The position numbers and the translations under genes were made by a program. This document shows positions 3,470-63,476 of a stretch of 64,000 nucleotides of DNA, piece by piece. The notes below the pieces were generated by a model. That model made no database searches. It saw only the letters and a program-made list of their open reading frames with translations, and was not told the origin of the DNA. The stretch is from an uncultured Gammaproteobacteria bacterium (GTDB lineage Bacteria; Patescibacteriota; Patescibacteriia; Magasanikbacterales; GWA2-37-8), in assembly GCA_964355175.1 (NCBI GenBank), contig CAYHBZ010000002.1, forward strand, positions 332,537 to 396,536, read 5' to 3'. How positions within the stretch are numbered: the stretch's first letter is position 1; each line of letters starts with the position of its first letter.

Positions 3470-4573
3470 ATGATTATTGGAATCGACGCTTCTCATGCCA
3501 ACAAAGCCAGCCGTACCGGCGTGGAGGAGTATTGTTTTCAGATGATAGAAGAATTTAAAAAAATTATCCCGTCCCAGGCGCGGGTAATTTTATTTTCACC
3601 CACGCCCTTGGTTTCTGAATTTTCAGCTTTGCCGGCGAATTGGGAGGTAAAAATTTTGTCATGGCCATTGAAAAAATTATGGAGCCAATTTTGTTTGGCC
3701 TATGAGCTGTGGCGACATCCGGTAGACATTTATTTTTCTCCCGGACAACTACTGCCATTTTTTGCGCCTAAAAATTCGGTAGTGATGATCCACGACAGTG
3801 CTTTTGAGGCTTGTCCGAAAGCCTATAGTTTTTGGGGAAGGCAGTATTTAAAGTGGATGAATAAGCTTATAGTGAAAAAATCCAAATTAATTTTGACCTC
3901 TACTCAATTTAACAAAAGTGAATTACTTAAGTATTACAGTTATTTTTTTGAAGAACAAAGAGATTTGTTTGATAAAATAAAAGTAGTTCCTTTGGCTTAT
4001 GATAACAAAAAATTTAATCTAGAAGCGGTGCCAGTGGAAAATTCGTTTGGTAAATATATTTTATCAGTGGGTCGTTTGGAAGAAAAAAAGAACACCAAAA
4101 CTATTATTGAAGCGTTTGAGTTATTAAAAACAAAAATTTCAGATTTAAAATTAATTTTGGTTGGACGACCTGGATCCGGATATTTATTAATAAGAGAAGC
4201 GATTGATAATAGTGATTATAAAAAAGATATTTTGGAAATAGGTTTTGTGGATGATATAGTCGACATTGTTAAGAACGCTCAAGTCTTTGTGTTTCCTTCA
4301 TTATACGAAGGTTTTGGTATCCCGGTGTTGGAGGCAATGGCGATGGGTGTGCCGGTAGTGGCGAGCGACATTGAGGCGTTGCACGAAGTCGGTGGTAAGG
4401 CGTTGGTATATGAAACTAACGTGCAGGATATGGCTGATAAAATATTGAGATTGATGAGCGAGACTGAGTTTAGACAACGACAAGTGAATTTAGGCCTGGA
4501 TTTGGTGGCAGAATTTAGTTGGGAGAAGACAGCTACGAATAGTTGGAATCATATATTAACAATCCTAGATTAA
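3470..4573 (+). CDS. GT4/GT1-family glycosyltransferase
   Basis: C-terminal EGFGIPVLEAMAMGVPVVASD motif typical of retaining GT4 enzymes. Confidence 0.8.
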   Translation: MIIGIDASHANKASRTGVEEYCFQMIEEFKKIIPSQARVILFSPTPLVSEFSALPANWEVKILSWPLKKLWSQFCLAYELWRHPVDIYFSPGQLLPFFAPKNSVVMIHDSAFEACPKAYSFWGRQYLKWMNKLIVKKSKLILTSTQFNKSELLKYYSYFFEEQRDLFDKIKVVPLAYDNKKFNLEAVPVENSFGKYILSVGRLEEKKNTKTIIEAFELLKTKISDLKLILVGRPGSGYLLIREAIDNSDYKKDILEIGFVDDIVDIVKNAQVFVFPSLYEGFGIPVLEAMAMGVPVVASDIEALHEVGGKALVYETNVQDMADKILRLMSETEFRQRQVNLGLDLVAEFSWEKTATNSWNHILTILD

Positions 4574-4666
4574 GTCTTTGTCGGTAGTTAAATATTTAAG
4601 AATGTTGTTAATTTTGCAGAATTGTGGTAGTATAGCAATACTAAATATAATAATAATTTTAATTAT

Positions 4667-7600
4667 ATGAGAGAGGGATTTACTCCGTCGGTGGAAAGAC
4701 CGATGAACTATAAAAAAGAACGAAAGCAAGAATTGAGTGTTGCAGAGTTGTTATTTGATGAGATTAATACCGAAATTCAACGCTCTAACAAAGGTAAGGA
4801 AAAAGATAAAAAAATAAAATTTATTGATCATCCACGTTATGGCGAATGGAAAGCTTTGCGTGACGCCAATGTGGCTGAATCTTTACGGGCTGACTCTACC
4901 AAAAGAGAATCCGATTTTAGAAATGCGCACGAACAGGAGATGCAAGATTCTCGAGCGGTTTTTAATGATAGAGCAGATGAAAAGAATAGGGAATTAACGC
5001 TCCTAAGAGCGCAGGCTCAAGAAGCGGCCGCTTCTGAAGCAAAAAGGGCGGAAGTTTTGGCCGTAGAAGAAGCTAAAAGAAAGGACTTGGAGAGTTTGTC
5101 GATTGATAGATTTTATAGAGACGGTAAAAAAATTGATAGCGCTCATGCCAGCCAAAAAGACGCTGGTAATTTGCTGTTGGGTAAAAAAGATGCTGGATTA
5201 TCAGTGGCTGGTCGTTTGGTAGAAGATGGTTTTGAAGGTGAAGAGGCAAAAAGACAGATCAATAGTATTATCAAAGACATGGGTCAATTAAAAAATGTTT
5301 ATTCTGTTCAGATTAAGTCTTTGCAAGAAATGGGTTTGGTGGATAGAATTATGGGCAGACGCGCGGCTTTAGAAAAACAAATGGCTGAAACTCAGGCTGA
5401 TATCCTTTTGAAATCGGAGGCCCTCTTGAAAGAATTTAAAGTTTCTGGAAAAGTATTTGCTCAGCAAGAGATGATTGTGGAAAGATTGTGGGATTTGTCT
5501 AAAAAATTAGAAAATAAAGTGTCTGTTGGAGAGGCTGTGGTAGCGTTGACTGTTTTGGCAGCCATCCTGGCTGGTGGTGCTAGTGAAGTTGCTAAGAAAG
5601 TATCGGCAGCTGATGATTTTCGCGCTCCAGCGGTGGCGTCTTATGATACTTTCGGTGATTCCAATCTCGACCAAGATTCATTTACATCTGATTTGGTAGA
5701 GGGAAAAGTTAGTGGTTATAAGGTAAGCTCAGAAACTGTTTCTTCATCGGCTGAGTCTGAGAGTAAAGTAACTAAGGAATTATTCTCCTTAACCCCAGAA
5801 GAATCTGATAAAGTAAAAAGTTTTAAGGATTGGCGTCGAGCTATTCTTAATCCGGAATTTATTGGTAAAGAGAAAAAAGATGGATCTGTGCCTACAACTG
5901 AAAGAGGTCGTAATGTAGCTCCAGGGACTCAGTTGGAAATTTCAGTAGATGGTAATGTATTAATTGCCGGCGAAGTTGAAAAATATGGTAGTATTTGGGG
6001 TGTATTAGAAGAAAATAAAAATGAAATTAAAAAAGTTGCCAAAGAAAAAGGGTGGGGCAACTTAGATTTGCGTATTATTGAATCAGTTGATTCTAAAGAC
6101 GGCGAAAGTAAAATAAAAGGCAAAGTAGCTCATGATAAAGAGAAGGGTGATAGCAACAAATCCCGTAAAGACATAGCCAAAGTTGGTGCAGCTGATACTG
6201 GATCAGAGGATGAAAATCCGGCGCTAAAAGAGGCCGCCCGCCATTCTGCCAATGATCGACTTGGGGAAATTGGTGTCAGACATCAAATCGGCCATGATTA
6301 TCCTTCGCTAGATGGTTATCAAGGTGCAATTGATGAATTGAAAAAAATCAAAAATATTGATGCTAGTTTGGAAAATCCAGTCAAAGCGGAAATAAAACGA
6401 TTAGAAACAGCTAAAGAAGATTTAAAAAATAGATTGGTAAAAGCCAAAGGCGAAGCAGAAAAATATATCGAAAGTAAAGGCGTTAAGCATACAGTGGGAC
6501 TCGACTATAAAACTATTAAAGATTATGATCAGGCTATTGACGAATTAAGCCAGATTGAAGGCGGTATTGTTTTGCCGCCCATAGTGGATATGCAACAAAC
6601 AGATGATTCCAAGAGAATGTCTCAGATTAAAGATGGTGTCCGAGCAGAGAGAGAGCGTTTGGAAACAGCCAAGCAAAATTTAAGACTAAAACAGATCCAA
6701 GCGGGCATAGACAATGAGAGTTCGGTACCGGAAGCTGGGAAACCAGAAAAATTGGATTTTAAACCGTCTTTAAAAGTTTCCGATTTGATGTCAGATGCAG
6801 AGTTGAGTTTGGCGGCTAGTGGTGAAATGTATGGACGTAATTTAGTGAAAGCTCATAATTTGACTAGTTCAGTATTTGAATATTTGGGTGGAGAAGATCA
6901 ACATTTATTTGATTCTTTGTCTGAAAAAGATTTAAGAAAATTTTTGGGAATGGTTGAGGAAGCCAAAAGTTTATACAATCTTGTTTTAACTGTCAAAGAA
7001 GATGGTAAAATAAAGCCAAACCCAACTACAATAGAACAAGCCAAAAAAGGTCAAGAAATCGCTGGGAAATTGGCGATTGAGTTAGATGATGCTATTCCAA
7101 AAAATAGTGTGGACAAGGCGGTTGTTTCTGCTGGTCAGCGTCTAGAAATTTTATACAAAGAAACTGAATCTAGGACAGGAAATGTAGCTTTGTATGGGCC
7201 AGATGGAGCTTTGGATACACTACAAAAAGTCATGAAGAGTATAAAAACAAAAGGTAAGATCGGGAGTTCGGATCGTAAAATTTTAAAAAAAATAGAGAGT
7301 ACGGCTCATACTGTCTTGCATAGTGATAATAATCTTGAGCCGGATAAAAAAGCCGCCAAAGAAGTTTTGGCCATTTCTGTTATTTTGAAAGGGTCAATCT
7401 CTAAGAGGGATCAAAATCGTGTTGAGAAGGAAGAGTCAGCTGGTCTTGGAGTGCGCTATGAATTACCTAAGCCAGCAGATCAGAGAACCGACAAAGATCT
7501 AAATAAATTGTTGTCCAATAAAGTAAAAGATCAAATCAATCAAGCCTATGAATTGGCCGAAAAGCTGTCGGATGATAGTCCGTCGAGTGATGTAGCCTAT

Positions 7601-7888
7601 GATTTGGTTTCAGCCGCCGCTTTGCTTGAGCAGCTATTGTTGCGTCCTATGGAATTGGGAGATATTCAGGATAAATTAAGCAGAGCCGAAGATCTTATTT
7701 CAAAGACCCAGGCCAAGGTAGGTAATAGTAAGATTTATCCAAGGGAATACACAGAGGCTTTGAGCCAACTAAATTCCGCTTTTATTGGCACTCGGGATTC
7801 TTTGATAAAGACTGAGGTTATCAAGCAGATCGATAAGCGGGTCGCTCCGGTAGAAAAAATCGGCAAGCGCGTGGCCGATCGTAAATAA
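4667..7888 (+). CDS. large K/E-rich coiled-coil protein with a single central TM helix, function unknown
   Basis: 1073 aa, strongly charged low-complexity/coiled-coil composition, with internal repeats (..YQGAIDELKKI.. and ..YDQAIDELSQI..). One hydrophobic segment, VVALTVLAAILAGG. A candidate TTGTTA-17-TAGTAT promoter lies upstream. Confidence 0.5.
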   Translation: MREGFTPSVERPMNYKKERKQELSVAELLFDEINTEIQRSNKGKEKDKKIKFIDHPRYGEWKALRDANVAESLRADSTKRESDFRNAHEQEMQDSRAVFNDRADEKNRELTLLRAQAQEAAASEAKRAEVLAVEEAKRKDLESLSIDRFYRDGKKIDSAHASQKDAGNLLLGKKDAGLSVAGRLVEDGFEGEEAKRQINSIIKDMGQLKNVYSVQIKSLQEMGLVDRIMGRRAALEKQMAETQADILLKSEALLKEFKVSGKVFAQQEMIVERLWDLSKKLENKVSVGEAVVALTVLAAILAGGASEVAKKVSAADDFRAPAVASYDTFGDSNLDQDSFTSDLVEGKVSGYKVSSETVSSSAESESKVTKELFSLTPEESDKVKSFKDWRRAILNPEFIGKEKKDGSVPTTERGRNVAPGTQLEISVDGNVLIAGEVEKYGSIWGVLEENKNEIKKVAKEKGWGNLDLRIIESVDSKDGESKIKGKVAHDKEKGDSNKSRKDIAKVGAADTGSEDENPALKEAARHSANDRLGEIGVRHQIGHDYPSLDGYQGAIDELKKIKNIDASLENPVKAEIKRLETAKEDLKNRLVKAKGEAEKYIESKGVKHTVGLDYKTIKDYDQAIDELSQIEGGIVLPPIVDMQQTDDSKRMSQIKDGVRAERERLETAKQNLRLKQIQAGIDNESSVPEAGKPEKLDFKPSLKVSDLMSDAELSLAASGEMYGRNLVKAHNLTSSVFEYLGGEDQHLFDSLSEKDLRKFLGMVEEAKSLYNLVLTVKEDGKIKPNPTTIEQAKKGQEIAGKLAIELDDAIPKNSVDKAVVSAGQRLEILYKETESRTGNVALYGPDGALDTLQKVMKSIKTKGKIGSSDRKILKKIESTAHTVLHSDNNLEPDKKAAKEVLAISVILKGSISKRDQNRVEKEESAGLGVRYELPKPADQRTDKDLNKLLSNKVKDQINQAYELAEKLSDDSPSSDVAYDLVSAAALLEQLLLRPMELGDIQDKLSRAEDLISKTQAKVGNSKIYPREYTEALSQLNSAFIGTRDSLIKTEVIKQIDKRVAPVEKIGKRVADRK

Positions 7889-15094: not shown

Positions 15095-15170
15095 GCCGGC
15101 TTAGCTCAGTTGGTAGAGCAACGGTTTTGTAAACCGTAGGTCTAGGGTTCGAATCCCTAAGCCGGCTCCA
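15095..15170 (+). tRNA. tRNA-Thr(UGU), CCA encoded
   Basis: Acceptor GCCGGCU/AGCCGGC, anticodon stem ACGGU/ACCGU with loop UUUGUAA, T-arm UAGGGUUCGAAUCCCUA, 3' UCCA. Confidence 0.8.
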
Positions 15171-15207: not shown

Positions 15208-15837
15208 GTGATACACACCAGTTGCTTTATGCCACAAAAAACTATTACAACAGAACAAGAAAAGTTAGTAAAGAATTTGTATATTCATGGAAAGATGGGG
15301 AAAGAAATTTCTTCCATCTCCGGCTTGTCTTTGAAACAAATATATAGTTCTCTCCGCCGTCAGAAAGTTCCAAGAAAAAGTTTGGCTGAACAAAATAAAA
15401 TTTTGTTTGAGAAAAAATTACCATCATTTAGGTTTAAAGAAAATTTAAATTTAAAAGACAGAGAACTCTTGATAGCGGCGATTATGTTGTATTATGGAGA
15501 AGGAGCCAAAACAGGAGTTACGGTAGATTTTATAAATTCAGATGTGCTGGTGGTAAAATTATTCTTAAAATTTTTGAGAAAAATTTGTCGAGTAAATGAA
15601 GATAAAATAAGATGTTACCTCTATTGTTTTGAAGATCAAAATATAAATGAATTAATAAATTATTGGTCGTCTCAATTAAAAGTTGGAAGGACACAGTTTA
15701 CCAAGCCTTATGTCCGTCCAAATGTTAATCGAGGCAATAGATCAATGCCTCATGGAGTGATACATGTTCGTTACGGAGATAAAAAGTTATTAGAGAAAAT
15801 TTTATATCTTTGCAAAGAACTAGTTAGCTCTTTATAA
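15208..15837 (+). CDS. hypothetical protein with an N-terminal HTH and a possible LAGLIDADG-like motif
   Basis: The N-terminus (..LVKNLYIHGKMGKEISSISGLSLKQIYSSLRR..) looks like a homeodomain-type HTH. LLIAAIMLYYGEGAKTG weakly resembles a single LAGLIDADG motif. The gene sits between two tRNA genes, directly upstream of the intron-containing tRNA-Tyr. The true start may be at M8 (MPQK...). Confidence 0.4.
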   Translation: MIHTSCFMPQKTITTEQEKLVKNLYIHGKMGKEISSISGLSLKQIYSSLRRQKVPRKSLAEQNKILFEKKLPSFRFKENLNLKDRELLIAAIMLYYGEGAKTGVTVDFINSDVLVVKLFLKFLRKICRVNEDKIRCYLYCFEDQNINELINYWSSQLKVGRTQFTKPYVRPNVNRGNRSMPHGVIHVRYGDKKLLEKILYLCKELVSSL

Positions 15838-15843
15838 AAAATT

Positions 15844-16118
15844 GGGCAGATACCAAAGTGGCTAACTGGGGCAGACTGTGAACAATTGCAGCTCTTAGAG
15901 GTAACTCTAGGATGAACTCTCTGGGATAACGGTGAAAGCTAATGGGGGTGCTAATACCGTGGGAACTTCGCAACGTGCGGAGAGCGCCGTAGAGACTAGA
16001 TACCAGAGTATCCCGATTCAGTTGGGATAAAGATATAGTCCATGCCGTAAGGAAACTTATGGATAAGTGAAATCTGCTGGCTCCGCCTTCGTAGGTTCGA
16101 ATCCTACTCTGCCCACCA
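15844..16118 (+). tRNA. tRNA-Tyr(GUA) split by a group I intron in the anticodon loop (exons 15844-15879 and 16070-16118, CCA encoded)
   Basis: The joined exons read GGGCAGA-UA-CCAA..UGGG-G-CAGAC-U-GUA-AA-UCUGC-UGGCUCCGCCUUC-GUAGGUUCGAAUCCUAC-UCUGCCC-A-CCA. This is a type II tRNA with a long variable arm. The anticodon stem-loop GCAGACUGUAAAUCUGC is identical to bacterial tRNA-Tyr. Confidence 0.75.
15880..16069 (+). other. group I self-splicing intron (IC3-like, ~190 nt) within tRNA-Tyr
   Basis: The conserved S element AAGAUAUAGUCC matches the group I consensus exactly at 16029-16041. The R-like element GUAGAGACUAGAUA at 15989-16002 supplies the P7 pairing GACUA/UAGUC. The 5' exon ends in U, which can pair with the internal guide GCAG near the intron start. 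The intron ends in G just before the 3' exon. Confidence 0.7.
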
Positions 16119-31824: not shown

Positions 31825-33249
31825 ATGAATGATTTTTCTTTTTTCTCCGTTTTTGGTTTTACCATTAATTGGGATTTTTGGAATTGGATAGTGGTTCAGC
31901 CACCCAGCGATACTGTCTGGTATATTTTTGTTATTATTGGTTGGGCCGCGTTAGCACTCGTATTTTTCTATATGGGTGCTCATTTTTGGGTGAATTATCG
32001 CAGAGAAAAATATACGGCCAAATGGCAATGGATGGTATTGGCTGTGGATGTGCCACCGCTATATATTCAAACCCCAAAAGCGGTAGAGCAAATTTTTGCC
32101 CATCTCAGCGGCGCAAAAGTGGGTATCAGTATCAGGCAAAAATACTGGGAAGGAAAGAAACAAAAATATTTTAGTTTTGAAATAGTTTCGGTGGAAGGCT
32201 ATATCCAATTTCTCATTCGCACCGAAGCGGAATTTCGTGATTTGGTAGAAGCGGCCGTGTATGCGCAATATCCGGAAGCGGAAATTACCGAGATCGAGGA
32301 CTATGTGGATATGGTGCCAAATTCTTTTCCAAATTCCACCCATCATATGTTGGCGGTGGAATTCAAATTGGCCGATGCCGACGCTTATCCTATTCGTACC
32401 TATCCCAGCTTTGAATATAAAATTAGCAAAGACGATGTTTTCAGTGATCCGATGGCCGCGATTTTGGAAAACTTTTCTCGTATTGGTCATGGCGAAAATT
32501 TATGGTTTCAAATTATTCTCGAGCCTACGGGCAGTGCTTGGAAAACCAAAGGGATTGCTTTGCTAAAAAGTATTATTGCCGGTGATCACGGTCATCACGG
32601 TAATCCAGTCTTGAGTTTTATTGGCGATTTACCGATGAAGGTGGCCAAAGAATTATTTACCATAATGAATAACACTGAATTTAGCGGCCATGAAGAGGAG
32701 CACGCGCCAGTGGCCGGGAAAATTAGCGATCTGACGCCCGGCGTCAAATCTACTCTCGAAGCGATAGAAGATAAAATTGCCAAGATTGGTTTCAAAACAA
32801 AAATGCGCGCGGTGTATATGGCTCGCAACGAAGTGTTCAATCCCAGCCGCTGTATTGATGGCTTTGTTGGTGCGATGAACCAGTTTCATATTCAGAGTCG
32901 CAACGCGATAGTGCCAAGTTCGATAAGTCATGGACATTTTGTTTTTTTCAAACGCTGGCAACAAGAAATGTTGGATAATAAATTTATAAAAAATTATGTC
33001 AAAAGAAAAATCAAATCTGGCGCCAGTCCATACATATTAAACATTGAAGAGTTAGCCACGGTGTGGCATTTCCCATTACCATTTGTGAAGACCCCGCTTG
33101 TACAAAAATCCGGAGCAAAGCGTGGCGAACCGCCTATCAATCTTCCTGTGGATATGATCGAAAGCCCGCTAAAAGTGAAGACCAAAGGCCAAGCGCTGCC
33201 TCCGCCACCATTGCCCGAGCCCGAAGTGGAAGAATTGCCTTATGGATAA
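31825..33249 (+). CDS. membrane-anchored protein homologous to the N-terminal ~450-aa domain of the TraD/VirD4-like ATPase at 42993..45554 (no ATPase domain)
   Basis: Shared blocks include EIVSVEGYIQFLIRTEAEFRDLVEAAVYAQYPEAEITEIEDY vs SFEIVVKDAKISFYVAIPDKWKDFVEQQIHAQYPHAEISVETDY, and LATVWHFPLPFVKTP vs MASLWHMPVPNTETP. Single N-terminal TM helix and a Pro-rich C-terminus. Confidence 0.6.
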   Translation: MNDFSFFSVFGFTINWDFWNWIVVQPPSDTVWYIFVIIGWAALALVFFYMGAHFWVNYRREKYTAKWQWMVLAVDVPPLYIQTPKAVEQIFAHLSGAKVGISIRQKYWEGKKQKYFSFEIVSVEGYIQFLIRTEAEFRDLVEAAVYAQYPEAEITEIEDYVDMVPNSFPNSTHHMLAVEFKLADADAYPIRTYPSFEYKISKDDVFSDPMAAILENFSRIGHGENLWFQIILEPTGSAWKTKGIALLKSIIAGDHGHHGNPVLSFIGDLPMKVAKELFTIMNNTEFSGHEEEHAPVAGKISDLTPGVKSTLEAIEDKIAKIGFKTKMRAVYMARNEVFNPSRCIDGFVGAMNQFHIQSRNAIVPSSISHGHFVFFKRWQQEMLDNKFIKNYVKRKIKSGASPYILNIEELATVWHFPLPFVKTPLVQKSGAKRGEPPINLPVDMIESPLKVKTKGQALPPPPLPEPEVEELPYG

Positions 33250-33909: not shown

Positions 33910-34085
33910 TCCTCTGTCGTCAGCCCAACAGCCCCACTCGCTACAAGCGGGCAGTGGGGCAGACGCGGTAGATATCACTCGCCGCGCAATTTGAAAATAA
34001 CATATTTGTTTTCAGATTGTGCGAGTGATATAAACGCTTAAAAAATAAAACACACCAATTAAATTTGGTGTGTTTTTTGTTTTGT

Positions 34086-34616
34086 TTATTTTGTTGTCTG
34101 TAAACTTGTTTCCGGAACCAATTTTTTTATCATTTCATATCCGCCAATCAGTACACCGCTGTAGAATAAGTTGCTTATAATTTCATTGCGCCAGAAGGGG
34201 AGAGCCATATAATAGCTTTGCAACAATCCGGAAAAGTCATGAGTGTACATGGTGCCAAATAGCCAGACTGCGCCATTGGTAAGTAAGAAGAAAATTAGAC
34301 TACCGGAAAGTACACCGATGATAACATTGGAAACGCCAATTTTATTTTTTAGATATTGGCCGATTAGCACCATCAAAACAAATCCAACATATACTGAAGC
34401 CATAATTGATGGGCGATAGAAACCAATAAAGATATCGCTGATAAACATTGCCGCCAAAGGTAAAAGCAAAGATTCTTTTTTGCCCAGATATAAACCGGCA
34501 AATAGAGCGACCGCGCCCATAGCGGTAAAATTACCAGGGTGAGGCATGAAGCGGGTGGCAATGGCCAGGATTATTAGCAGGTAGATAGGTAATTTTTTCA
34601 TAAGTTCAGTAATCAT
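34086..34616 (-). CDS. 6-TM membrane protein resembling ECF-transporter S components (substrate-capture subunit), tentative
   Basis: 176 aa, six hydrophobic helices, size and topology typical of vitamin-specific ECF S components. Last gene of a minus-strand cluster with the DUF4430 protein and the giant surface protein. Confidence 0.4.
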   Translation of the reverse strand: MITELMKKLPIYLLIILAIATRFMPHPGNFTAMGAVALFAGLYLGKKESLLLPLAAMFISDIFIGFYRPSIMASVYVGFVLMVLIGQYLKNKIGVSNVIIGVLSGSLIFFLLTNGAVWLFGTMYTHDFSGLLQSYYMALPFWRNEIISNLFYSGVLIGGYEMIKKLVPETSLQTTK

Positions 34617-34628
34617 TTAGTGGCTAAA

Positions 34629-37600
34629 TTATAGCACATTCTTTATCAATCTCAAACCTAAGTACAGTCCAAGCGCGGCGGCACTGCCTCCGGTCACAGC
34701 GAGCACTTTTTTGGCGGTGCGGCGGGTAGGAGTGTCGAGCGGCAAGTCGTCGATTGGGCTGGTTTTGTCTTCTATTTTTTCTGCGGAGCTTAATTGCTGC
34801 TGTTGTTTAAGAGAAGTGATATTGTCAGATGAGTTGTTGGAATCATTGTTGGTGGTAGGGGAAACAGCTACCACTTTGACAGTAGGTTGTGCTACCAAAA
34901 TCACTGGTTTGGTTTCAGGTAATTCTGTTGCTAGCACGACAGTGGTCGTAGCGGGGGTAGTGGTTGCTATGGTCGTGGTAGCTACTGTAGTGGTGGCAAT
35001 GGTAGTGGTTGCTATAGTAGTGGTAGGAGTACTCGTAGGAATTACAATAATTTCAGAAGATCCACCCGAGCCAGTAGTGACAGATTTTGGATCCAAAGTT
35101 ATTGGCCAAGATTTTCCAAGCATAGCTGGTACGGCAGATTTCGTGCCAAACCAATCAATGCCACCATCCCAGGATTGAGTGAAATGATCATTATTTAAAG
35201 TTGTCAAAATATACCAAGGGTTTTTTCCGACAGAATTAAACCATTCATTTTGGCCTTCTCCCAAAGCATTAATACCCATCACAGCCCAGCTGGTCGTCAG
35301 GCTGTCTGACTCAGCACAGCCATTAGTGTAATCATAGCAACCCCAGCCACCATCGGTGTGCTGTTGGTTTTTTAGATATTGTTTTGCTTTTGTATAAATA
35401 TCGGCATTCACAGTCGCGCCATTATTTTCGGCATACTTCAAAGCATTCACAGCCGCACCCGTAAGATCTGGTGATTCAAATGGACCGGGATAAGCGAAAC
35501 CACCGTCGGCTTCTTGATTGGCTTTGATTGCACTGAGCGTGGTCTGCACTACTGGTGAATTTTGGTCTTCGCCGATAGCAATGGCCGCGATCAAACCAAA
35601 TATGTCATCGTTAATTCCAGTTTGTCCAAAGATGTTATTTTGTACGCATGCGTCTAGCTTTGTTTTTAGGGCAATAATTTTGCTGTCATTTTTGGCGACA
35701 CTACTGGCGAGCAAACCTAAAATGTGACGAGGGTAAGCGGCGCAACTATTTAATTCTGTGTCTAAAAGACTACTATCGTAGTTGTATAGATAATTATAAA
35801 GAGACGAACTGGAATTTTTTACATCCGCGGCGTAAATATTTTTGGCGGCAAAAGTCAGGGCCAACCAATCCGAAGTGCCGGCGTCGATAATTTTACCATC
35901 AGCGCTTTGGTTGGTTTTGATAAAGTTAATTAATTTTGTGACAGCGCTGTCTATAGCGGTGGTGGAAATTAGTTGGTTGCTAGGAGAGCTGGATCCACCG
36001 CCGGAAGTGGAAGTAGTGCTGGTAGTATTTTGGTTGCTAGGCAAGTCGGTCACTACCAGTGTAATAGGCGCGCTCCATTTTAAGTAATTTTCATCGGTAA
36101 TTTTGGCAGAGTATGTGCCGGTGCTACTAAAATTATAGTAAGCCACACCTTGGTCATTGCTCAGTGTGGTGGAAACTGTAATGTCTGTGTCCCACCAGCC
36201 GGTAGGAGTAGGATTGGGAATAGTGATGGCCACTAAATCATTTGGATCCAAAACCCATTCGTTGCTTAGGTCGCTGTAATTATATTTCCAAGTATAAAAT
36301 GGCGTGGAAGTATTGATATAGACATTATTACTTGGGGTCGTAATTTTCCAAGAGTCTCCAAAATAAATATAAATATTTTCACCACCGTTTAAGGTCATAC
36401 TGCCCATACCAACTTGAGGGTAGACATTATTAACAACATAATTCCAATTACCACAAGTGGATGTGGCGATGCTTTCAATGTATAAACAGTTCAGATAATA
36501 GCCATAGTCGGAGAGTTGTAGATCGGATATAGAAAAGGTGGTAGTATTTTGAGCCGCATTTATTAAAGCTGTAAGAACGGTGGTCGAGGTAGTGGAAGTA
36601 GTTAATCCTTGGTTGTATGTAATCAAGGTATTGGTGGATAAAGTTACAGGACCAGAAAAAACAAAACCATTTTGATAACGGATATTTAGGTTAACAGTTA
36701 AATCTGTGGAGCTGGCAGTGCTAGCAACAGAACCTGTGTCCTCTGGTGTAGGCGCAACATACGGATCAAAAGTAAAGTTATTTATAATAAATTCATTGGT
36801 AGTATTGTTGGTTGGAATCAATCCTCTGTATTGCCAAAAATTTATATCTACCAAGGCATTGCTTGGGTCAAAATTATTGGTACTACCATCGGTGCTGGTT
36901 GTGTATGTCCAGCTACTGATGGTATTTCCATTTTGAGTGGTACTAAAATTAATTTTATCTGGTTGCCAATCGATAATATCTTCAAAAATACCATCGGAGA
37001 AAGTGGCCACTGAAATTTGTTTGTTGCCATCTTTACTGCCAGGCTGTACGACATAGAATAGATTATCACTGCCAGTTTCATCGGCCCAGTAAGAATGTTC
37101 GATGTCCAGTTCGTGACTATCATCCTGGTATAAAAAAGGCGCGGCTACCAGATTATGATCGAGTAAATCAGGGCGAGTGTTTATTTCAAAAGTATATTTT
37201 CCGTAACCTAAAGAAGCAGGTAGATAAACTTCGGAAGAGTACCATTTCTGATCATCTGCGTGTTGGGAAACTCTTAAGTGTAGGGCGGATCCGTCCAGGA
37301 AGACATCTTTATCCGTATTGCCCCAATTATTTTTAATTCCTGTATCTGTAATGCCGGGTAGTCCAGTTCCGCCTCGCACTTTCCAGGTGCGACCGGCAAA
37401 ATCTATTGTGTCCAAGATTGTGGGTCCAAAAGCTTCAAGAATTAAGGGAGTGAAGTTTTCGGTGGTAGTGGTGGTGCTGTTTGTTTCGGTTGATTGAGTA
37501 GTCTCGGCCTCTATAACGGTAGTAGTGGAAGTGGAGGATGTTTCTTCAGTGGTGGTAGTGTTTTCTTCTGCCCGACTGTTACCGGCCACAAATACTATTC

Positions 37601-37655
37601 CCAAAATAATTATCGCCCCCCAGATCAGTTGTTTTTTAAAATTGAGGTACTTCAT
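34629..37655 (-). CDS. giant cell-surface protein: signal peptide, GH16/concanavalin-like domain, Thr-rich linkers, prenyltransferase/terpene-cyclase-like alpha/alpha-toroid repeats, C-terminal TM anchor
   Basis: HELDIEH matches the GH16 catalytic ExDxE motif. ..QEADGGFAYPGPF..TDGGWGCYDY.. resemble squalene-cyclase/prenyltransferase repeats. Long T/S-rich low-complexity runs. C-terminal VLAVTGGSAAALGLYLGLRLI anchor. Confidence 0.65.
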   Translation of the reverse strand: MKYLNFKKQLIWGAIIILGIVFVAGNSRAEENTTTTEETSSTSTTTVIEAETTQSTETNSTTTTTENFTPLILEAFGPTILDTIDFAGRTWKVRGGTGLPGITDTGIKNNWGNTDKDVFLDGSALHLRVSQHADDQKWYSSEVYLPASLGYGKYTFEINTRPDLLDHNLVAAPFLYQDDSHELDIEHSYWADETGSDNLFYVVQPGSKDGNKQISVATFSDGIFEDIIDWQPDKINFSTTQNGNTISSWTYTTSTDGSTNNFDPSNALVDINFWQYRGLIPTNNTTNEFIINNFTFDPYVAPTPEDTGSVASTASSTDLTVNLNIRYQNGFVFSGPVTLSTNTLITYNQGLTTSTTSTTVLTALINAAQNTTTFSISDLQLSDYGYYLNCLYIESIATSTCGNWNYVVNNVYPQVGMGSMTLNGGENIYIYFGDSWKITTPSNNVYINTSTPFYTWKYNYSDLSNEWVLDPNDLVAITIPNPTPTGWWDTDITVSTTLSNDQGVAYYNFSSTGTYSAKITDENYLKWSAPITLVVTDLPSNQNTTSTTSTSGGGSSSPSNQLISTTAIDSAVTKLINFIKTNQSADGKIIDAGTSDWLALTFAAKNIYAADVKNSSSSLYNYLYNYDSSLLDTELNSCAAYPRHILGLLASSVAKNDSKIIALKTKLDACVQNNIFGQTGINDDIFGLIAAIAIGEDQNSPVVQTTLSAIKANQEADGGFAYPGPFESPDLTGAAVNALKYAENNGATVNADIYTKAKQYLKNQQHTDGGWGCYDYTNGCAESDSLTTSWAVMGINALGEGQNEWFNSVGKNPWYILTTLNNDHFTQSWDGGIDWFGTKSAVPAMLGKSWPITLDPKSVTTGSGGSSEIIVIPTSTPTTTIATTTIATTTVATTTIATTTPATTTVVLATELPETKPVILVAQPTVKVVAVSPTTNNDSNNSSDNITSLKQQQQLSSAEKIEDKTSPIDDLPLDTPTRRTAKKVLAVTGGSAAALGLYLGLRLIKNVL

Positions 37656-38265
37656 ATTTCCAAGTTAGTGAATCGTTATTTTTTAAAATATAATTTGAGA
37701 TGCCCGTTTGCGCCGGTTTGCTATTGAGGTAGTAGATCCAGTATTTGCCGGCATTCTTATCGGTTTTGACTCCATCGATTTCATCTACGAAATATCCTAG
37801 GCTAGAAAATGGTTTGAAAATGGCAGTGATTTTTTTCTCGTCTACCAGCTGTGCCATCGCGTCATAGGCCGTAGATTTTTCGGCCATCAGCAATGAATAG
37901 TTTTGGCCGTTAATTATTATCGTAACACTCAGAGTATTTTTTTCTGGAATTGGAGTGGTGGTTGGGGTGGCTTCGGAAGGTGTGTCAGTCGCCACGTTAG
38001 AATTTTTTTGTTCAGGCTGTCTGGTTTCTTTTTTCTGTTCCGGTACGGTCAGAGTGGTGTTGGTGGCGACATCAGACCAAGGCAGACTTTGCGCCACAGG
38101 AGCGGGCGAGACTGGTTTGGGTGTCGCGGCTTTATTTGGCAGTAGCAGATAGGCGCCGCTAGCTAGGGCCATGAATATTAGGACCATCCAGAGCCGCGTT
38201 AGGTGTTTGTTATGCATATTGTTATTTAAAAAAGAAAAAACCCTTTCCCGGGAGAAAAGATTCAA
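37636..38265 (-). CDS. secreted/anchored DUF4430-domain protein (transcobalamin beta-domain-like)
   Basis: C-terminal ..SAYDAMAQLVDEKK..GYFVDEIDG..KYWIYYLNS..WKYEV.. matches the DUF4430 pattern. N-terminal TM helix and a Pro/Thr-rich linker. Overlaps the start of the giant surface-protein gene by 20 nt. Confidence 0.55.
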   Translation of the reverse strand: MNLFSRERVFSFLNNNMHNKHLTRLWMVLIFMALASGAYLLLPNKAATPKPVSPAPVAQSLPWSDVATNTTLTVPEQKKETRQPEQKNSNVATDTPSEATPTTTPIPEKNTLSVTIIINGQNYSLLMAEKSTAYDAMAQLVDEKKITAIFKPFSSLGYFVDEIDGVKTDKNAGKYWIYYLNSKPAQTGISNYILKNNDSLTWKYEVPQF

Positions 38266-38447
38266 AAATAGAACATTCCTGCTCGGGAAGAACTATTATT
38301 TGAAGACCGGACTTGTTCTCGACTTAGTCGAGACTTTACCGTTGCGGCACAGTGGAGGAATTGACCTCACTTCCACAAATAATAGGTTAAATTGTATGTA
38401 TAAACTATCAGGGTTCTAAGGCACTGTCAAAGCGGGTGTGGATAAGT

Positions 38448-42992: not shown

Positions 42993-45554
42993 CTACAGGG
43001 AAACTTCACTCATATCAATACCAGTAGTTGGCTTGGAAACACCCAGCTGGGCGCGTTCGGCAATTTCGGCTTCCACGATTTCACGCGCGCGTCCATATTT
43101 GAGACGAGAGAGCTCTTTTATCGCTTCGGCCAGTTCTTTATTGCCTGGTTTTGGCGGATAGGTCATCATGTTGAATGGTTTGGCGGCGGTGTTGTCGATC
43201 AATAATTTTGTATAGGCAGTATATTGCTCCACATTTACCAAATCATAGGCGGAGAAAACCGGAGCAAATTCTTTTTGTAAAATATCGGCGTCTTCCACAC
43301 CGATGCGGAAAGAAACAATGGTACCGGCGTTACCAAGTACGGCGTCGCGCACGGCGGATTTGCCTTTGTTATCTTCCAATTGTTTCATGTATTGATGGGC
43401 GATGATTAGTTCAAGACGATATTTACGCGCCTCGGAAAGAATGGTGGCGATAGAATCAGTAATAAAGTTTTGGAACTCATCAATATATAGATAGAAGTCA
43501 TGGCGCTGATCCTCGGGCATATTGGCGCGCTCTAGAGCAGCCATCTGTAATTTGGACACGATAATCATACCCAAAAGATTGGAGTTGATTTCGCCGGTCA
43601 AACCTTTGGCCAGATTTACAATCAAAATTTTCTTTTGATCCATCACTTCACGGAAATTAAAACCGGAATGAGATTGGCCAATAATATTACGCACCATCGC
43701 GTTTTCAGTAAAACGGCCTACTTTGGAAATCAAATAACCCAACATTTCTGATTTGTGAAAATCTGAAGTCTTGGCCATTTCTTTTTCCCAGAAAGCCAGT
43801 ACCACCGGATCGTTTAATTTCTTTTTCCATTTGGCTACATAAGTATCGTCGGTAAACATGCGTGGTACTTCGGCGATAGTGCCTGGAGTCTCCATATCAG
43901 CCATCAAAGTCAACATCACATTGCGCATTTGGTGTTCAAACATCGGGCCGATCATCGATGGGTCCGTCACCATTTTATAGAAGATTGCGATCATTTCCTG
44001 AGTAGCAAAATCTTTTTGTCCCTCGGTTTTTACTTCAAGCATATTCAGCCCTATTGGACGATCGGTATCGGATGGATTGAAATAAATAACATCATCCGCG
44101 CGTTCTTTTGGTACGTGTTGTAACACATATTCGGCAAAGTCACCGTGCGGATCGATAATACAAACACCTTCGCCGTTTTGCACATCCTGGATAGCAAGAT
44201 TTTGGATGAACACGGATTTACCGGAACCAGATTTACCAATGGTATAAAGATGGCGACGACGATCATCACGTTTCATTTTTACTATAATTTCCTGACCGCG
44301 ATAAACCGAACGGCCCAAAATAATACCATCGGTAGGCATGTTGGTTGGTGGGGGAGCTTTGCGTGCGCCGAGCCAGTTGATATGTGGAGTTTCGGTATTT
44401 GGTACTGGCATATGCCAGAGCGAGGCCATCTCTTCGGTATTTACTACCATATAACGATTCGCATCCGGGGAGCGGTAGATGGATTCGCGAATAATTTTAT
44501 TCTGATTTTTTGGTACGGCCGCGCCAAAGGAATTGCCGTAGCGATAGATATTATATTGCGAAAAAGAATTCACGATATTTTCCAAATTCATTTTGGCCTT
44601 TTGTTGGCTGTCGGAGGAGCTCACCAAGCGTACCGTTAATTCCAGCCCGCCGTGAGAAATTTTTTCTTCCATGGTTTTCACCATTTCTTCTTCCATTTGG
44701 GTGAGATGATATTCTTTGGCACCACCATGAGCCGCGTCTTTATTTTTTGGAAAAAGTATTTTACCCCATTTGCTCAGAGAGCGCACAAAGGCACTGCGAC
44801 GAGCGACATATTCAAATTTTTGTCCCTCGCGAATGTCGCGGATCATGTGCACGCCCTGTTTGCGCCATTTGGAGGTGGCCGGACGAACGATATATTGTAA
44901 CAACGCGCCTTCGTTTTCAGATATTTTGCTTAGTGGATTGAGGATCGACAAAAGAGGATCGGCATCCATTTTTTTGAAAGTTTTTAGCGGGAATGCCGAG
45001 CGGCTTTTGAGAAATAAAGAAGCGGCCATGATATGACTCTGTGGTTTGAAAAGATTATAATCGGTTTCCACGGAAATTTCAGCGTGCGGATATTGAGCGT
45101 GAATTTGTTGCTCCACAAAATCTTTCCATTTGTCTGGGATAGCGACATAAAAAGAAATTTTGGCGTCTTTGACTACGATTTCAAAAGACAGGTGATCATT
45201 GCGTCCAAAAAACCATTTGGAAAATCCTTTGTCGGCTTTGAGGCCGGCGATAGCCGAAAACATGGTATCGGCAATGGCAATATATTCGCGGGTCTGAGTA
45301 ATATTTTGTTCGTTGCCGGATTGATTTTGGGTACTGTCACTCTTTTTTTCTTTTGGCACTTTGATCAATATGATGGTGCGATGAAAGGCTTTGCCTTCGT
45401 GATTGGTGGCCTGAAAAATCGCTCGCGCTAAAAATATCAAACCAATAAGCACGGCCCAACCGGCTACAAACAAAAAGCCGGCCAAGAATACAGGCTGTTG
45501 AATTCCATCCGCGAACCAGTTGGATAGGTATGTAAATAGGGAGCCGGAGTCCAT
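42993..45554 (-). CDS. TraD/TraG/VirD4-family type IV secretion coupling-protein-like ATPase with a large N-terminal membrane-anchored domain
   Basis: Walker A (YTIGKSGSGKS), Walker B (LYIDEFQNF), and a C-terminal TraG-D_C-like region (..IIAHQYMKQLED..GNAGTIVSFRIG..). The N-terminal ~450 aa is paralogous to ORF 31825..33249. Confidence 0.7.
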   Translation of the reverse strand: MDSGSLFTYLSNWFADGIQQPVFLAGFLFVAGWAVLIGLIFLARAIFQATNHEGKAFHRTIILIKVPKEKKSDSTQNQSGNEQNITQTREYIAIADTMFSAIAGLKADKGFSKWFFGRNDHLSFEIVVKDAKISFYVAIPDKWKDFVEQQIHAQYPHAEISVETDYNLFKPQSHIMAASLFLKSRSAFPLKTFKKMDADPLLSILNPLSKISENEGALLQYIVRPATSKWRKQGVHMIRDIREGQKFEYVARRSAFVRSLSKWGKILFPKNKDAAHGGAKEYHLTQMEEEMVKTMEEKISHGGLELTVRLVSSSDSQQKAKMNLENIVNSFSQYNIYRYGNSFGAAVPKNQNKIIRESIYRSPDANRYMVVNTEEMASLWHMPVPNTETPHINWLGARKAPPPTNMPTDGIILGRSVYRGQEIIVKMKRDDRRRHLYTIGKSGSGKSVFIQNLAIQDVQNGEGVCIIDPHGDFAEYVLQHVPKERADDVIYFNPSDTDRPIGLNMLEVKTEGQKDFATQEMIAIFYKMVTDPSMIGPMFEHQMRNVMLTLMADMETPGTIAEVPRMFTDDTYVAKWKKKLNDPVVLAFWEKEMAKTSDFHKSEMLGYLISKVGRFTENAMVRNIIGQSHSGFNFREVMDQKKILIVNLAKGLTGEINSNLLGMIIVSKLQMAALERANMPEDQRHDFYLYIDEFQNFITDSIATILSEARKYRLELIIAHQYMKQLEDNKGKSAVRDAVLGNAGTIVSFRIGVEDADILQKEFAPVFSAYDLVNVEQYTAYTKLLIDNTAAKPFNMMTYPPKPGNKELAEAIKELSRLKYGRAREIVEAEIAERAQLGVSKPTTGIDMSEVSL

Positions 45555-62465: not shown

Positions 62466-62519
62466 GTCGAAGTTTTGGCATTGCTTAGTCCGTCGGCGTT
62501 AAAGCTTCGGCGAACAAAG

Positions 62520-62915
62520 TGGAGGTGGCGAGAGTTGAACTCGCGTCCAAATAATTTTGAATATACCATCTACATGCTTAGGCTGCTTATTTTTTTAAGT
62601 TGATGGATAATAAACAGACGAAATTCCAGCAACCGAGCAAGATTTACTTTCGGCTATAGTCATCTTACAGTAACTAAAGCCTACTTTCCGTGAGTGACAC
62701 CGCTTTGCGTTACGGAACCTTACGCAGGCGATGGGAAGCGGTTATTAAGCCGCAACCGGAGCAAAGCTGAAGCTAGGGCTAAAAGCGCTAGCAAGAGCAG
62801 TCTTTACTTTTGATAACAAGTTTGCACTTATTATGTGTTTCGAGGATTTACGAGGTTCAAAACGCCCTCGGCATGCGAGTGTACTCAGAAACTTTTGTCA
62901 AAGCCCAGCACCCCC
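62520..62915 (-). ncRNA. ssrA: tmRNA (ssrA), ~396 nt
   Basis: Reverse complement starts GGGGGUGCUGGGCUUUG and ends ..GGACGCGAGUUCAACUCUCGCCACCUCCA (tRNA-like T-arm plus a 7-bp acceptor pairing with the 5' end). Internal tag reading frame GCA AAC UUG ... GUU GCG GCU UAA UAA, ending ..APVAA then a double stop. Adjacent to smpB. Confidence 0.7.
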
Positions 62916-63035: not shown

Positions 63036-63476
63036 TTAATCTTTTAAAGATCTTTTCATTTCTCTTTCGGTGTCGCGTTTCTTGATAGTTTCTCTTTTAT
63101 CGTATTGTTTTTTACCGCGACCGACAGCGATTTCCACTTTGATAAATCGATTTTTAGTATACACTGAAAGTGGCACGATTGTCAAGCCCTTTTCGGCCAA
63201 TTTTCCTTGTAAATAGCGGATTTCTCGCTTGCGTAGGAGCAGACGACGGCTAGCGGTGGGTTCGTAGTCGGGGAGATTGCCGGCTTGAGGGTATTTGCTA
63301 ATATTGGCATTAGTGAGATACGCATCGCCATTATGGAAGGTGACATAAGTGCCTTTTAGTGACATATGTCCGGCCTTTATGGATTTAGTTTCTTGGCCAG
63401 TCAACACCAAACCAGCCTGGAATTTTTCCAGGATTTCATAATCAAATAAAGCTTTTTTGTTACTGGCTAAGGACAT
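63036..63476 (-). CDS. smpB: SsrA-binding protein
   Basis: ..ALFDYEILEKFQAGLVLTGQE.. SmpB signature. 146 aa. Confidence 0.9.
   Translation of the reverse strand: MSLASNKKALFDYEILEKFQAGLVLTGQETKSIKAGHMSLKGTYVTFHNGDAYLTNANISKYPQAGNLPDYEPTASRRLLLRKREIRYLQGKLAEKGLTIVPLSVYTKNRFIKVEIAVGRGKKQYDKRETIKKRDTEREMKRSLKD

Follow-up and report, generated by a model that had tools for sequence, protein, structure and literature searches.

Transcobalamin, intrinsic factor and haptocorrin are eukaryotic carriers of vitamin B12 (cobalamin) which consist of a single chain, with an alpha-domain followed by a beta-domain. The SLBB beta-grasp domain is the part of these carriers which contacts B12 (PMC1796856). 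Bacterial surface proteins combining SLBB domains with an alpha/alpha-toroid have been predicted by Burroughs et al. 2007 to scavenge B12, and the respective operons often contain a second SLBB paralogue as well as CbiO/CbiQ-type modules (PMC1796856). A split pair of transcobalamin-like alpha and beta proteins, Lsa1839/Lsa1840, is encoded in an energy-coupling factor (ECF)-like operon of L. sakei (bioRxiv 10.1101/864751). At the membrane, ECF-CbrT (structure 6FNP) is the ECF transporter for vitamin B12 of Lactobacillus delbrueckii (PMC5997447). BtuM of Thiobacillus denitrificans, in contrast, is a solitary S-component-like B12 transporter which works without an ECF module, and its defining residue Cys80 serves as cobalt ligand and decyanation residue. 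In Bacteroides, BtuG is a surface-exposed high-affinity binder which passes B12 to the membrane transporter BtuB under the control of a B12 riboswitch. Here we describe a locus in a 64,000-nucleotide stretch of contig CAYHBZ010000002.1 (the whole stretch is called the window in the following), in which a cobalamin riboswitch precedes genes for two surface proteins and for a membrane protein of the family DUF6580. We consider it likely that this locus is a cobalamin-riboswitch-controlled operon for the scavenging and import of B12 (or, more generally, of corrinoids) in Candidatus Magasanikbacteria.

The window belongs to a genome of the Magasanikbacteria, members of the Candidate Phyla Radiation (CPR), and the closest homologues are found in Candidatus Magasanikbacteria and other Patescibacteria. 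An earlier note on this DNA had described three co-oriented genes on the minus strand which overlap or abut, and the open reading frames (ORFs) were indeed found at 37636-38265 (209 amino acids, aa), 34629-37655 (1008 aa) and 34086-34616 (176 aa). Gene 1 shares 20 nt with gene 2, and a gap of 12 nt separates gene 2 from gene 3. The features of the locus are the following:

38402 to 38430, minus strand: possible promoter with a perfect -35 hexamer TTGACA (38430-38425), a 17-nt spacer and a weak -10 hexamer TAGTTT (38407-38402)
38268 to 38401, minus strand: cobalamin riboswitch aptamer of the adenosylcobalamin (AdoCbl) type, Rfam RF01482 (clan CL00101)
38228 to 38289, minus strand: putative expression platform, a hairpin (38289-38245) using the conserved CCCGAGCAGGAA, followed by a U-rich tract (38240-38228)
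37636 to 38217, minus strand: gene 1, SLBB/DUF4430 protein (Pfam DUF4430); start codon uncertain, 38217 or 38187
34629 to 37655, minus strand: gene 2, modular surface protein of 1008 aa, from its sequence reaching from a signal peptide to a C-terminal membrane anchor
36756 to 37433, minus strand: divergent domain of gene 2 resembling glycoside hydrolase family 16 (GH16), aa ~75-300, by family profile A6; catalytic motif E-L-D-I-E
36036 to 36698, minus strand: second SLBB/DUF4430 domain and an all-beta, immunoglobulin (Ig)-like domain of gene 2, aa ~320-540, by Pfam and AlphaFold2
35106 to 35963, minus strand: alpha/alpha-toroid of gene 2, aa ~565-850, by Pfam SQHop_cyclase_C and profile A4
34632 to 34724, minus strand: C-terminal anchor of gene 2, basic residues and then a hydrophobic helix (VLAVTGGSAAALGLYLGLRLI)
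34086 to 34616, minus strand: gene 3, DUF6580 membrane protein (Pfam DUF6580)
34047 to 34076, minus strand: intrinsic terminator from a consensus scan, a bidirectional hairpin with a 12-bp stem and then a T-run

The riboswitch had been missed by the earlier note. It lies on the same strand as the genes and directly 5' of the DUF4430 gene, with the aptamer ending about 50 nt ahead of the ATG at 38217, and the same placement is found in 47 loci. An Rfam scan of the whole window matched the full RF01482 model (model positions 1-149) with a score of 51.9 bits versus a gathering score of 50. Because this margin is thin, the element was tested by comparison across 80 related loci, which had been retrieved from species-representative genomes with a DUF6580 alignment; the window proteins were compared with all ORFs of these loci, and eight loci which are cut off upstream were left out of the riboswitch scoring. 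At the gathering threshold, Rfam detected an AdoCbl or AdoCbl-II riboswitch upstream of the cluster in three of the first ten loci. A covariance model (R1), for which 14 upstream regions of related loci were used, matched the window at 38259-38404 with 163.9 bits. Elsewhere it yielded 47 matches in 46 related loci, in every case on the coding strand and, except for a second copy in locus L056, always 5' of the gene with which the cluster begins. In an alignment of 48 sequences, which was fitted to the covariance model and hence is biased toward the structure, 92.4% of the structure cells are paired versus at most 52% when the partners are slid; 25 of the 29 pairs show compensatory changes, and none of 500 shuffles reached the observed values. 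Judged by this sequence comparison the riboswitch is real and conserved, and both cobalamin binding and switching are predicted for it. In total, the element was detected in 47 of the 80 loci, without exception on the strand of the genes. Such control is not universal in the DUF6580 family, since the 11 scanned DUF6580 loci without a DUF4430 neighbour gave no cobalamin riboswitch at the Rfam gathering threshold; in one of the Ignavibacteria loci (L079) none appeared even at a relaxed threshold.

Around the aptamer, every sequence of alignment A2 keeps the CCCGAGCAGG element unchanged, and the fold of the putative expression platform is no better than that of shuffled sequence (z = +1.0). The possible promoter would, by its position, start transcripts just ahead of riboswitch helix P1; it was not picked up by the consensus promoter scan because of its weak -10 hexamer. 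As the TTG at 38265, with which the longest frame of gene 1 begins, overlaps the 3' end of the riboswitch, the true start is probably the ATG at 38217 (193 aa) or the ATG at 38187 (183 aa), the latter being used in public gene calls. At the other end, the stem of the terminator lies 10 nt past the stop codon of the DUF6580 gene, so that the operon is bounded at 34047-34076. A strong promoter-like match (34628-34655, minus strand; TTGAGA, 16 nt, TG-TATAAT, 11/12) was also seen within the last codons of gene 2, just 5' of the DUF6580 start, and from its sequence might drive an expression of DUF6580 which is independent of the riboswitch.

The gene content of the 80 related loci was as follows:

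62 of 80 loci: DUF4430 upstream of DUF6580
about 50 of 80 loci: toroid-type or related large surface protein upstream of DUF6580
47 of 80 loci: riboswitch present
40 loci: riboswitch, DUF4430, large protein and DUF6580
1 locus (L046): riboswitch, large protein and DUF6580, with DUF4430 not detected
6 loci: riboswitch, DUF4430 and DUF6580 only
12 loci: DUF4430 and DUF6580, with no riboswitch detectable
12 loci: DUF6580 alone, none with a riboswitch

In most of the about 50 loci with a large surface protein, this protein is encoded between DUF4430 and DUF6580. As relatives differ in the N-terminal module of their large protein and a GH16 module is found in the four closest relatives only, DUF4430 and DUF6580 are, by this comparison of gene content, the core of the system, to which the toroid protein is often added as a third part.

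From the N- to the C-terminus, the gene 1 protein consists of a hydrophobic anchor, a linker rich in Pro and Thr, and a beta-grasp domain. The latter is matched by Pfam DUF4430 (PF14478) with E=5e-15 and 56.2 bits versus a gathering score of 23.8. A DUF4430 profile of 49 sequences (A9) was searched against the PDB structures and matched the haptocorrin beta-domain (4kki, E=1.1e-7), intrinsic factor (2pmv, E=3.4e-5), transcobalamin-2 (2bb6, E=0.015) and the isolated transcobalamin beta-domain (5no0, E=0.038). The homology of DUF4430 to the beta-domain of transcobalamin and intrinsic factor, as put forward in the earlier note, is thereby confirmed and includes haptocorrin. Gene 1 is thus like the B12-contacting part of these carriers, and it is predicted from sequence to encode the corrinoid-binding subunit. 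A tblastn search with the DUF4430 domain against plasmids gave no match.

Gene 2, the product of which is identical to protein P0241 of public assemblies, encodes in this order a signal peptide, the GH16-like domain, the second SLBB/DUF4430 domain, a beta-sandwich, the toroid, a Thr-rich stalk and the C-terminal membrane anchor. The signal peptide and the anchor agree with the description of an anchored surface protein of 1008 aa given earlier; the C-terminal tail is kept in 12 related loci and is present in the consensus of alignment A8. In the complete protein, Pfam gave a weak internal DUF4430 match. When isolated, the middle region scored 24.1 bits with Pfam DUF4430 versus a cut-off of 23.8, and AlphaFold2 gave a block-mean predicted local distance difference test (pLDDT) score of 89-98 over aa ~320-540, with a secondary structure of a beta-grasp and then a beta-sandwich. 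For aa 311-870 as a whole the pLDDT was 91.7, the model being confident within domains, not between them (predicted template modelling score, pTM, 0.63).

The toroid was matched by Pfam SQHop_cyclase_C (E=1.4e-9), and a toroid profile of 37 sequences (A4) matched squalene-hopene cyclase (SHC; 1gsz, E=1.9e-28). Foldseek searches with the model of the middle region plus toroid found the single-domain cyclases 8pak/8paj, with a template modelling (TM) score of 0.62 by target length, as well as alpha2-macroglobulin and C3, which combine a beta-sandwich with a thioester-domain toroid. The earlier note had assigned to this region the fold of the transcobalamin alpha-domain: the alpha/alpha-toroid fold itself holds, whereas the specific likeness to the alpha-domain was not confirmed, because the structural matches were alpha2-macroglobulin/complement and squalene-hopene cyclases. 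As in the transcobalamin group, an alpha/alpha-toroid belongs to the same system as the SLBB domains. The parts are, in contrast to the single-chain carriers, split over two membrane-anchored proteins, and in gene 2 their order is reversed, with SLBB before the toroid, and an additional beta-sandwich, GH16 domain and anchors are present.

A function of gene 2 as a terpene cyclase was considered and rejected. Its toroid is a single domain of ~300 aa, in contrast to the two-domain (beta-gamma) enzyme of ~630 aa, and the DxDD motif of the cyclases (D-V-D-D-T in SHC) is lost, the aligned residues being S-P-D-L-T; because it is a single domain and reads SPDL at the DxDD positions, the toroid is not a cyclase.

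The GH16-like region of the window sequence gave no Pfam or PDB match, and neither did a profile of five sequences. The profile A6, which comprises 36 homologues, matched the Bacillus GH16 lichenases (1,3-1,4-beta-glucanases) 3o5s, 1mac and 1byh with E ~1e-9, and H-E-L-D-I-E-H of the window aligns with EIDIEF of the lichenases. E123, D125 and E127 are invariant across the 36 sequences, 13 of which are matched by Pfam GH16 (PF00722). An N-terminal GH16-like domain with an intact ExDxE motif had been claimed before from the sequence alone and was recovered here by the 36-sequence profile only. The earlier note had also offered the alternative that the locus encodes a glucan-binding or glucan-cleaving surface complex, in which GH16 would be the functional core and the rest a scaffold. 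The invariant catalytic residues and the many stand-alone CPR members of this GH16-like family would fit such a role, and alpha/alpha-toroids are found in many glycoside hydrolases. The GH16 module is however present in just 4 of the 80 loci, the four closest relatives, while DUF4430 and DUF6580, with or without the toroid, form the conserved core; in other homologues of gene 2, FN3 or extra SLBB modules stand in the place of GH16. In addition, the toroid profile matches toroids of the terpene-cyclase type and not those of glycoside hydrolases, and cobalamin is the predicted ligand of the riboswitch. A glucan complex is therefore not supported as the core function, and we regard it as extremely improbable. 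As only these four loci carry it, the GH16 module is, from the comparison of loci, a recent and lineage-specific accessory to what we take to be a B12 scavenging operon.

Gene 3 is matched by a single Pfam family, DUF6580 (PF20221), with E=1.8e-49. Its AlphaFold2 model has a pLDDT of 91.8, and the first five Foldseek matches of this model were all S-components with TM scores of 0.56-0.65, namely BtuM, ThiT (two chains), 4huq_S and RibU; FolT followed at rank 10. The best match was BtuM with hydroxycobalamin (8ovv, TM 0.64, probability 1.0). The model thus indicates that DUF6580 is a helical membrane bundle of the ECF S-component type, in agreement with the earlier description of a protein with six transmembrane helices and the size of an ECF S-component; DSSP counts seven helices. 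As a single sequence, DUF6580 gave no match in the PDB. A profile of 61 DUF6580 sequences gave one match at E up to 10, 6FNP chain A (E=7.4e-4), which must be CbrT because the chain has 182 residues, and the alignment spans MFISDIFIGF in DUF6580 versus MVISNIFLGF in CbrT. As the matched CbrT fragment falls in Pfam PF12822 and not in DUF6580, the relation is a remote one. The residues which are invariant in DUF6580 include R22, H26, N29, S60 and D61 and no Cys. The family is large, with 6,471 clusters at 50% identity (E up to 1e-3).

Like ECF-CbrT and the 'CbrUVT' systems of Firmicutes, in which the S-component is dedicated to cobalamin, the system of the window has a small membrane protein of the S-component type. 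The gene neighbourhood is also similar, as cbrT of L. delbrueckii lies in an nrdJ-cbrS-cbrT-pduO cluster and a PduO-type cobalamin adenosyltransferase gene adjoins DUF6580 in L056 (Gottesmanbacteria), L048 (Levybacteria) and L077; in L063 PduO is about 4 kb away. In contrast to CbrT, DUF6580 forms a separate Pfam family, no EcfT or EcfA gene is linked to the operon of the window or seen in 84 kb, and this operon is controlled by a riboswitch, includes surface binders and occurs in a CPR bacterium.

In structure, the DUF6580 model is matched best by BtuM, and again the genomic context is alike: btuM genes co-localise with btuB, and in L079 and L080, two loci of Ignavibacteria, DUF6580 comes after a TonB-dependent receptor and before the B12-dependent methionine synthase MetH, with gaps of a few bases. 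This is the same kind of context which led to the discovery of BtuM, and together with PduO in three loci it links DUF6580 in a BtuM-like manner to an outer-membrane receptor and to B12 metabolism. BtuM was not matched at the sequence level by either the DUF6580 sequence or its profile. Cys80 of BtuM is absent from the DUF6580 protein of the window, which does not contain any cysteine, and DUF6580, unlike BtuM, is paired with SLBB surface proteins.

In both Ignavibacteria loci (L079, 156-7532, and L080) a DUF5074 protein is encoded ahead of the TonB-dependent receptor, DUF6580 and MetH. By analogy with BtuG it could be a surface B12 binder; it had no sequence match in the PDB, and no informative literature was found.

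Further observations concern the riboswitches of related loci. In L020 (3888-3984) and L047 (6338-6414) an AdoCbl-II riboswitch (RF01689) instead of AdoCbl stands ahead of the same cluster. The second cobalamin riboswitch copy of L056 (3449-3582) precedes a protein of 448 aa (3598-4944) which has no Pfam match and bears a C-terminal CxxC...CxxC motif, and a homologue of it follows PduO in L048 (8141-9553); this protein family may represent another B12-related gene. In addition, a thiamine pyrophosphate (TPP) riboswitch is found in L016 (1740-1831, minus strand).

One protein in a library of 1.84 billion proteins, P0392, is a natural fusion of DUF6580, a seventh transmembrane helix and DUF4430, which points to a joint action of DUF6580 and DUF4430, with the SLBB domain facing outward. 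In P0391 (372 aa, representative library) the C-terminal end of a toroid-type protein appears to be joined to a DUF6580 domain; this may be another type of fusion or else an artefact of gene calling.

From the model, the product of gene 3 is predicted to be the corrinoid translocator. A different role would follow if the surface proteins merely bound or sequestered B12 for storage, competition or signalling, with import through an unlinked transporter and DUF6580 not being the translocator. Such a view could draw on the lack of an energising module linked to the operon and on transport by DUF6580 being a prediction for a family of which no mention was found in the literature searched. Against it stand the S-component fold of DUF6580, its presence as the anchor gene in every locus including the minimal two-gene form, and its fusion to DUF4430 in P0392. 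In Ignavibacteria, moreover, DUF6580 lies between MetH and the receptor of the outer membrane, a position in which one would expect a B12 carrier of the inner membrane, and BtuM provides a precedent for a solitary S-component-like B12 carrier. We consider mere sequestration quite unlikely and prefer the import of B12 through DUF6580.

The suggestion of the earlier note that the locus resembles a split transcobalamin-like binder feeding a vitamin permease has thus gained support from the AdoCbl riboswitch conserved in 47 of 80 loci, from the matches of the DUF4430 profile, from the S-component fold of DUF6580 with BtuM and CbrT as its nearest matches, from the links to PduO and MetH and from the fusion. 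Nevertheless, several observations weigh against an operon for B12 uptake. The Rfam score of the riboswitch is barely over the threshold (51.9 versus 50), and no riboswitch was detectable in 12 DUF4430-DUF6580 pairs and in all 12 loci with a solitary DUF6580. The Foldseek E-values of the DUF6580 model are weak (0.15) despite TM scores of 0.56-0.65, and the sequence match to CbrT is a modest one (E=7.4e-4). For the toroid, the matches are to terpene cyclases and to thioester domains, with no transcobalamin in the profile search at E up to 1 and none among the top 50 Foldseek matches of the model of aa 311-870; likewise, Pfam Cobalamin_bind did not match any of the three operon proteins. The ECF A and T components, which the earlier note had proposed to look for, were not found in the 64-kb window and 10 kb on each side of it, nor was any B12-dependent enzyme, and of 81 sources only 2 had ABC-ATPase motifs in their flanks. 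Both ligand binding and transport are predictions from sequences and models. Finally, the homologous system of L. sakei has been assigned to haem and not to B12 (bioRxiv 10.1101/864751).

This last point leads to the possibility that another tetrapyrrole or a fragment of B12 is taken up, the candidates being haem, cobinamide or another incomplete corrinoid, and the lower ligand or alpha-ribazole. The Lsa1836-1840 operon of L. sakei, which encodes an S-component, an ECF module and transcobalamin alpha/beta-like proteins, has been tied experimentally to haem uptake (bioRxiv 10.1101/864751), ECF-CbrT also carries cobinamide (PMC5997447), and the reviewers of Burroughs et al. cautioned that the ligands of SLBB domains are possibly diverse (PMC1796856). 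The cysteine ligand of BtuM is, as mentioned, missing from DUF6580. On the other hand, a cobalamin riboswitch governs the operon in 47 loci, and PduO adenosyltransferase and MetH adjoin DUF6580 in other genomes. CPR genomes are expected to lack the enzymes which complete corrinoids, and this too speaks against the uptake of fragments. We therefore regard a ligand other than B12 as unlikely, though worth keeping in mind, while an uptake of incomplete corrinoids alongside B12 would be a variant of B12 scavenging and no true rival to it.

Compared with the proteins of Burroughs et al. and of L. sakei, the B12 scavenging operon proposed here agrees in its set of domains, in having a second, paralogous SLBB protein, in the secretion or anchoring of the proteins and in the role proposed for them. 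Those systems encode ECF modules of the CbiO/CbiQ type together with a conventional S-component, whereas the partner in the window is DUF6580 with no linked module. With BtuG/BtuB the operon shares the logic of capture and then transport under a B12 riboswitch. The folds of BtuG and BtuB, a beta-propeller lipoprotein and a TonB-dependent barrel, are unrelated to those of the window proteins, and their envelope has an outer membrane.

The analysis shows the riboswitch, the family relationships, the predicted S-component fold and the linkage of the genes, whereas the following course of binding, hand-over and transport, as well as the direction of the switch, is inferred. When intracellular adenosylcobalamin is low, the 5' riboswitch would permit expression of the three genes, an OFF-switch logic which is assumed by analogy with the usual behaviour of this riboswitch class. 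Two proteins would then be displayed outside the membrane, the small SLBB/DUF4430 protein on its long Pro/Thr tether and the giant SLBB plus toroid protein. Both might sandwich a corrinoid much as B12 is held between the beta- and the alpha-domain in transcobalamin and intrinsic factor, the geometry being modelled on these carriers. The ligand would be handed to DUF6580 and carried across the membrane. As no ABC ATPase or EcfT-like gene is found in the window plus 10 kb, DUF6580 may work alone like BtuM or may dock, in the style of a group-II S-component, on an ECF module encoded elsewhere. The GH16-like domain may, as a speculation, tether the trap to a layer of beta-glucan, whether of its own cell or of a host, or cut this layer.

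A broader proposal, which we put forward tentatively and which appears possible to us but a little short of probable, is that DUF6580 represents a large unrecognised family of corrinoid carriers with an S-component fold and without a dedicated ECF module. In CPR bacteria it would be fed by tethered SLBB plus toroid proteins and would constitute the main B12 route in such ultra-small symbionts, as a bacterial counterpart of a split intrinsic-factor mechanism, and the capture protein of the window would have recruited an active GH16 glucanase. This recruitment perhaps serves to reach B12 at or through the glucan surface of a host.

Some other features of the window are mentioned for completeness. 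Two DUF8128 proteins flank the operon region (31825-33249, plus strand, and 42993-45554, minus strand), the larger of which also has type IV secretion coupling-protein (VirD4/TraG/TrwB) domains, and this DUF8128-flanked neighbourhood is kept in other Magasanikbacteria genomes as well. At 15850-16062 (plus strand) Rfam detected a group I intron with 50.6 bits versus a gathering score of 50. It directly follows an ORF of 209 aa (15208-15837, no Pfam match) and is located downstream of two tRNA-Thr genes, one of them at 15095-15170; no rRNA gene which could be its host was found in the window. An ORF of 1073 aa (4667-7888, plus strand) is matched by no Pfam family at E up to 1e-4 and is given no family in public gene calls. 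Finally, a tmRNA gene adjoins smpB (62517-62915 and 63036-63476, both on the minus strand).

The scavenging of B12 by SLBB plus toroid proteins was already foreseen by Burroughs et al. 2007, and two B12 carriers with an S-component fold, ECF-CbrT and BtuM, have been characterised. What is most likely new is DUF6580 as the membrane partner of such proteins, and with it a first proposed function for this family. The wide distribution of the system in CPR bacteria, as it appears from the sequences of the related loci, is likewise new, and so are the lack of a linked ECF module and the fusion of a GH16 domain to the capture protein in this lineage. In the literature searched, nothing was found which links Patescibacteria/CPR with a cobalamin riboswitch, a B12 uptake route or an ECF-type B12 transporter.

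A large part of bacterial diversity belongs to the CPR/Patescibacteria, which cannot make most cofactors and the vitamin supply of which is largely a puzzle, and the locus described here offers a concrete and testable route of B12 uptake for them. A function is thereby proposed for DUF6580, that is, for thousands of uncharacterised membrane proteins, and the list of B12 carriers would be extended beyond BtuCDF, ECF-CbrT, BtuM and BacA. According to the prediction of 2007, B12 is captured on the cell surface by bacterial transcobalamin relatives; the locus supports this, and the riboswitch control adds a kind of evidence which was absent at that time. Finally, the variable modules of the capture protein (GH16, FN3 or extra SLBB) suggest that this trap is adapted to different surfaces or hosts.

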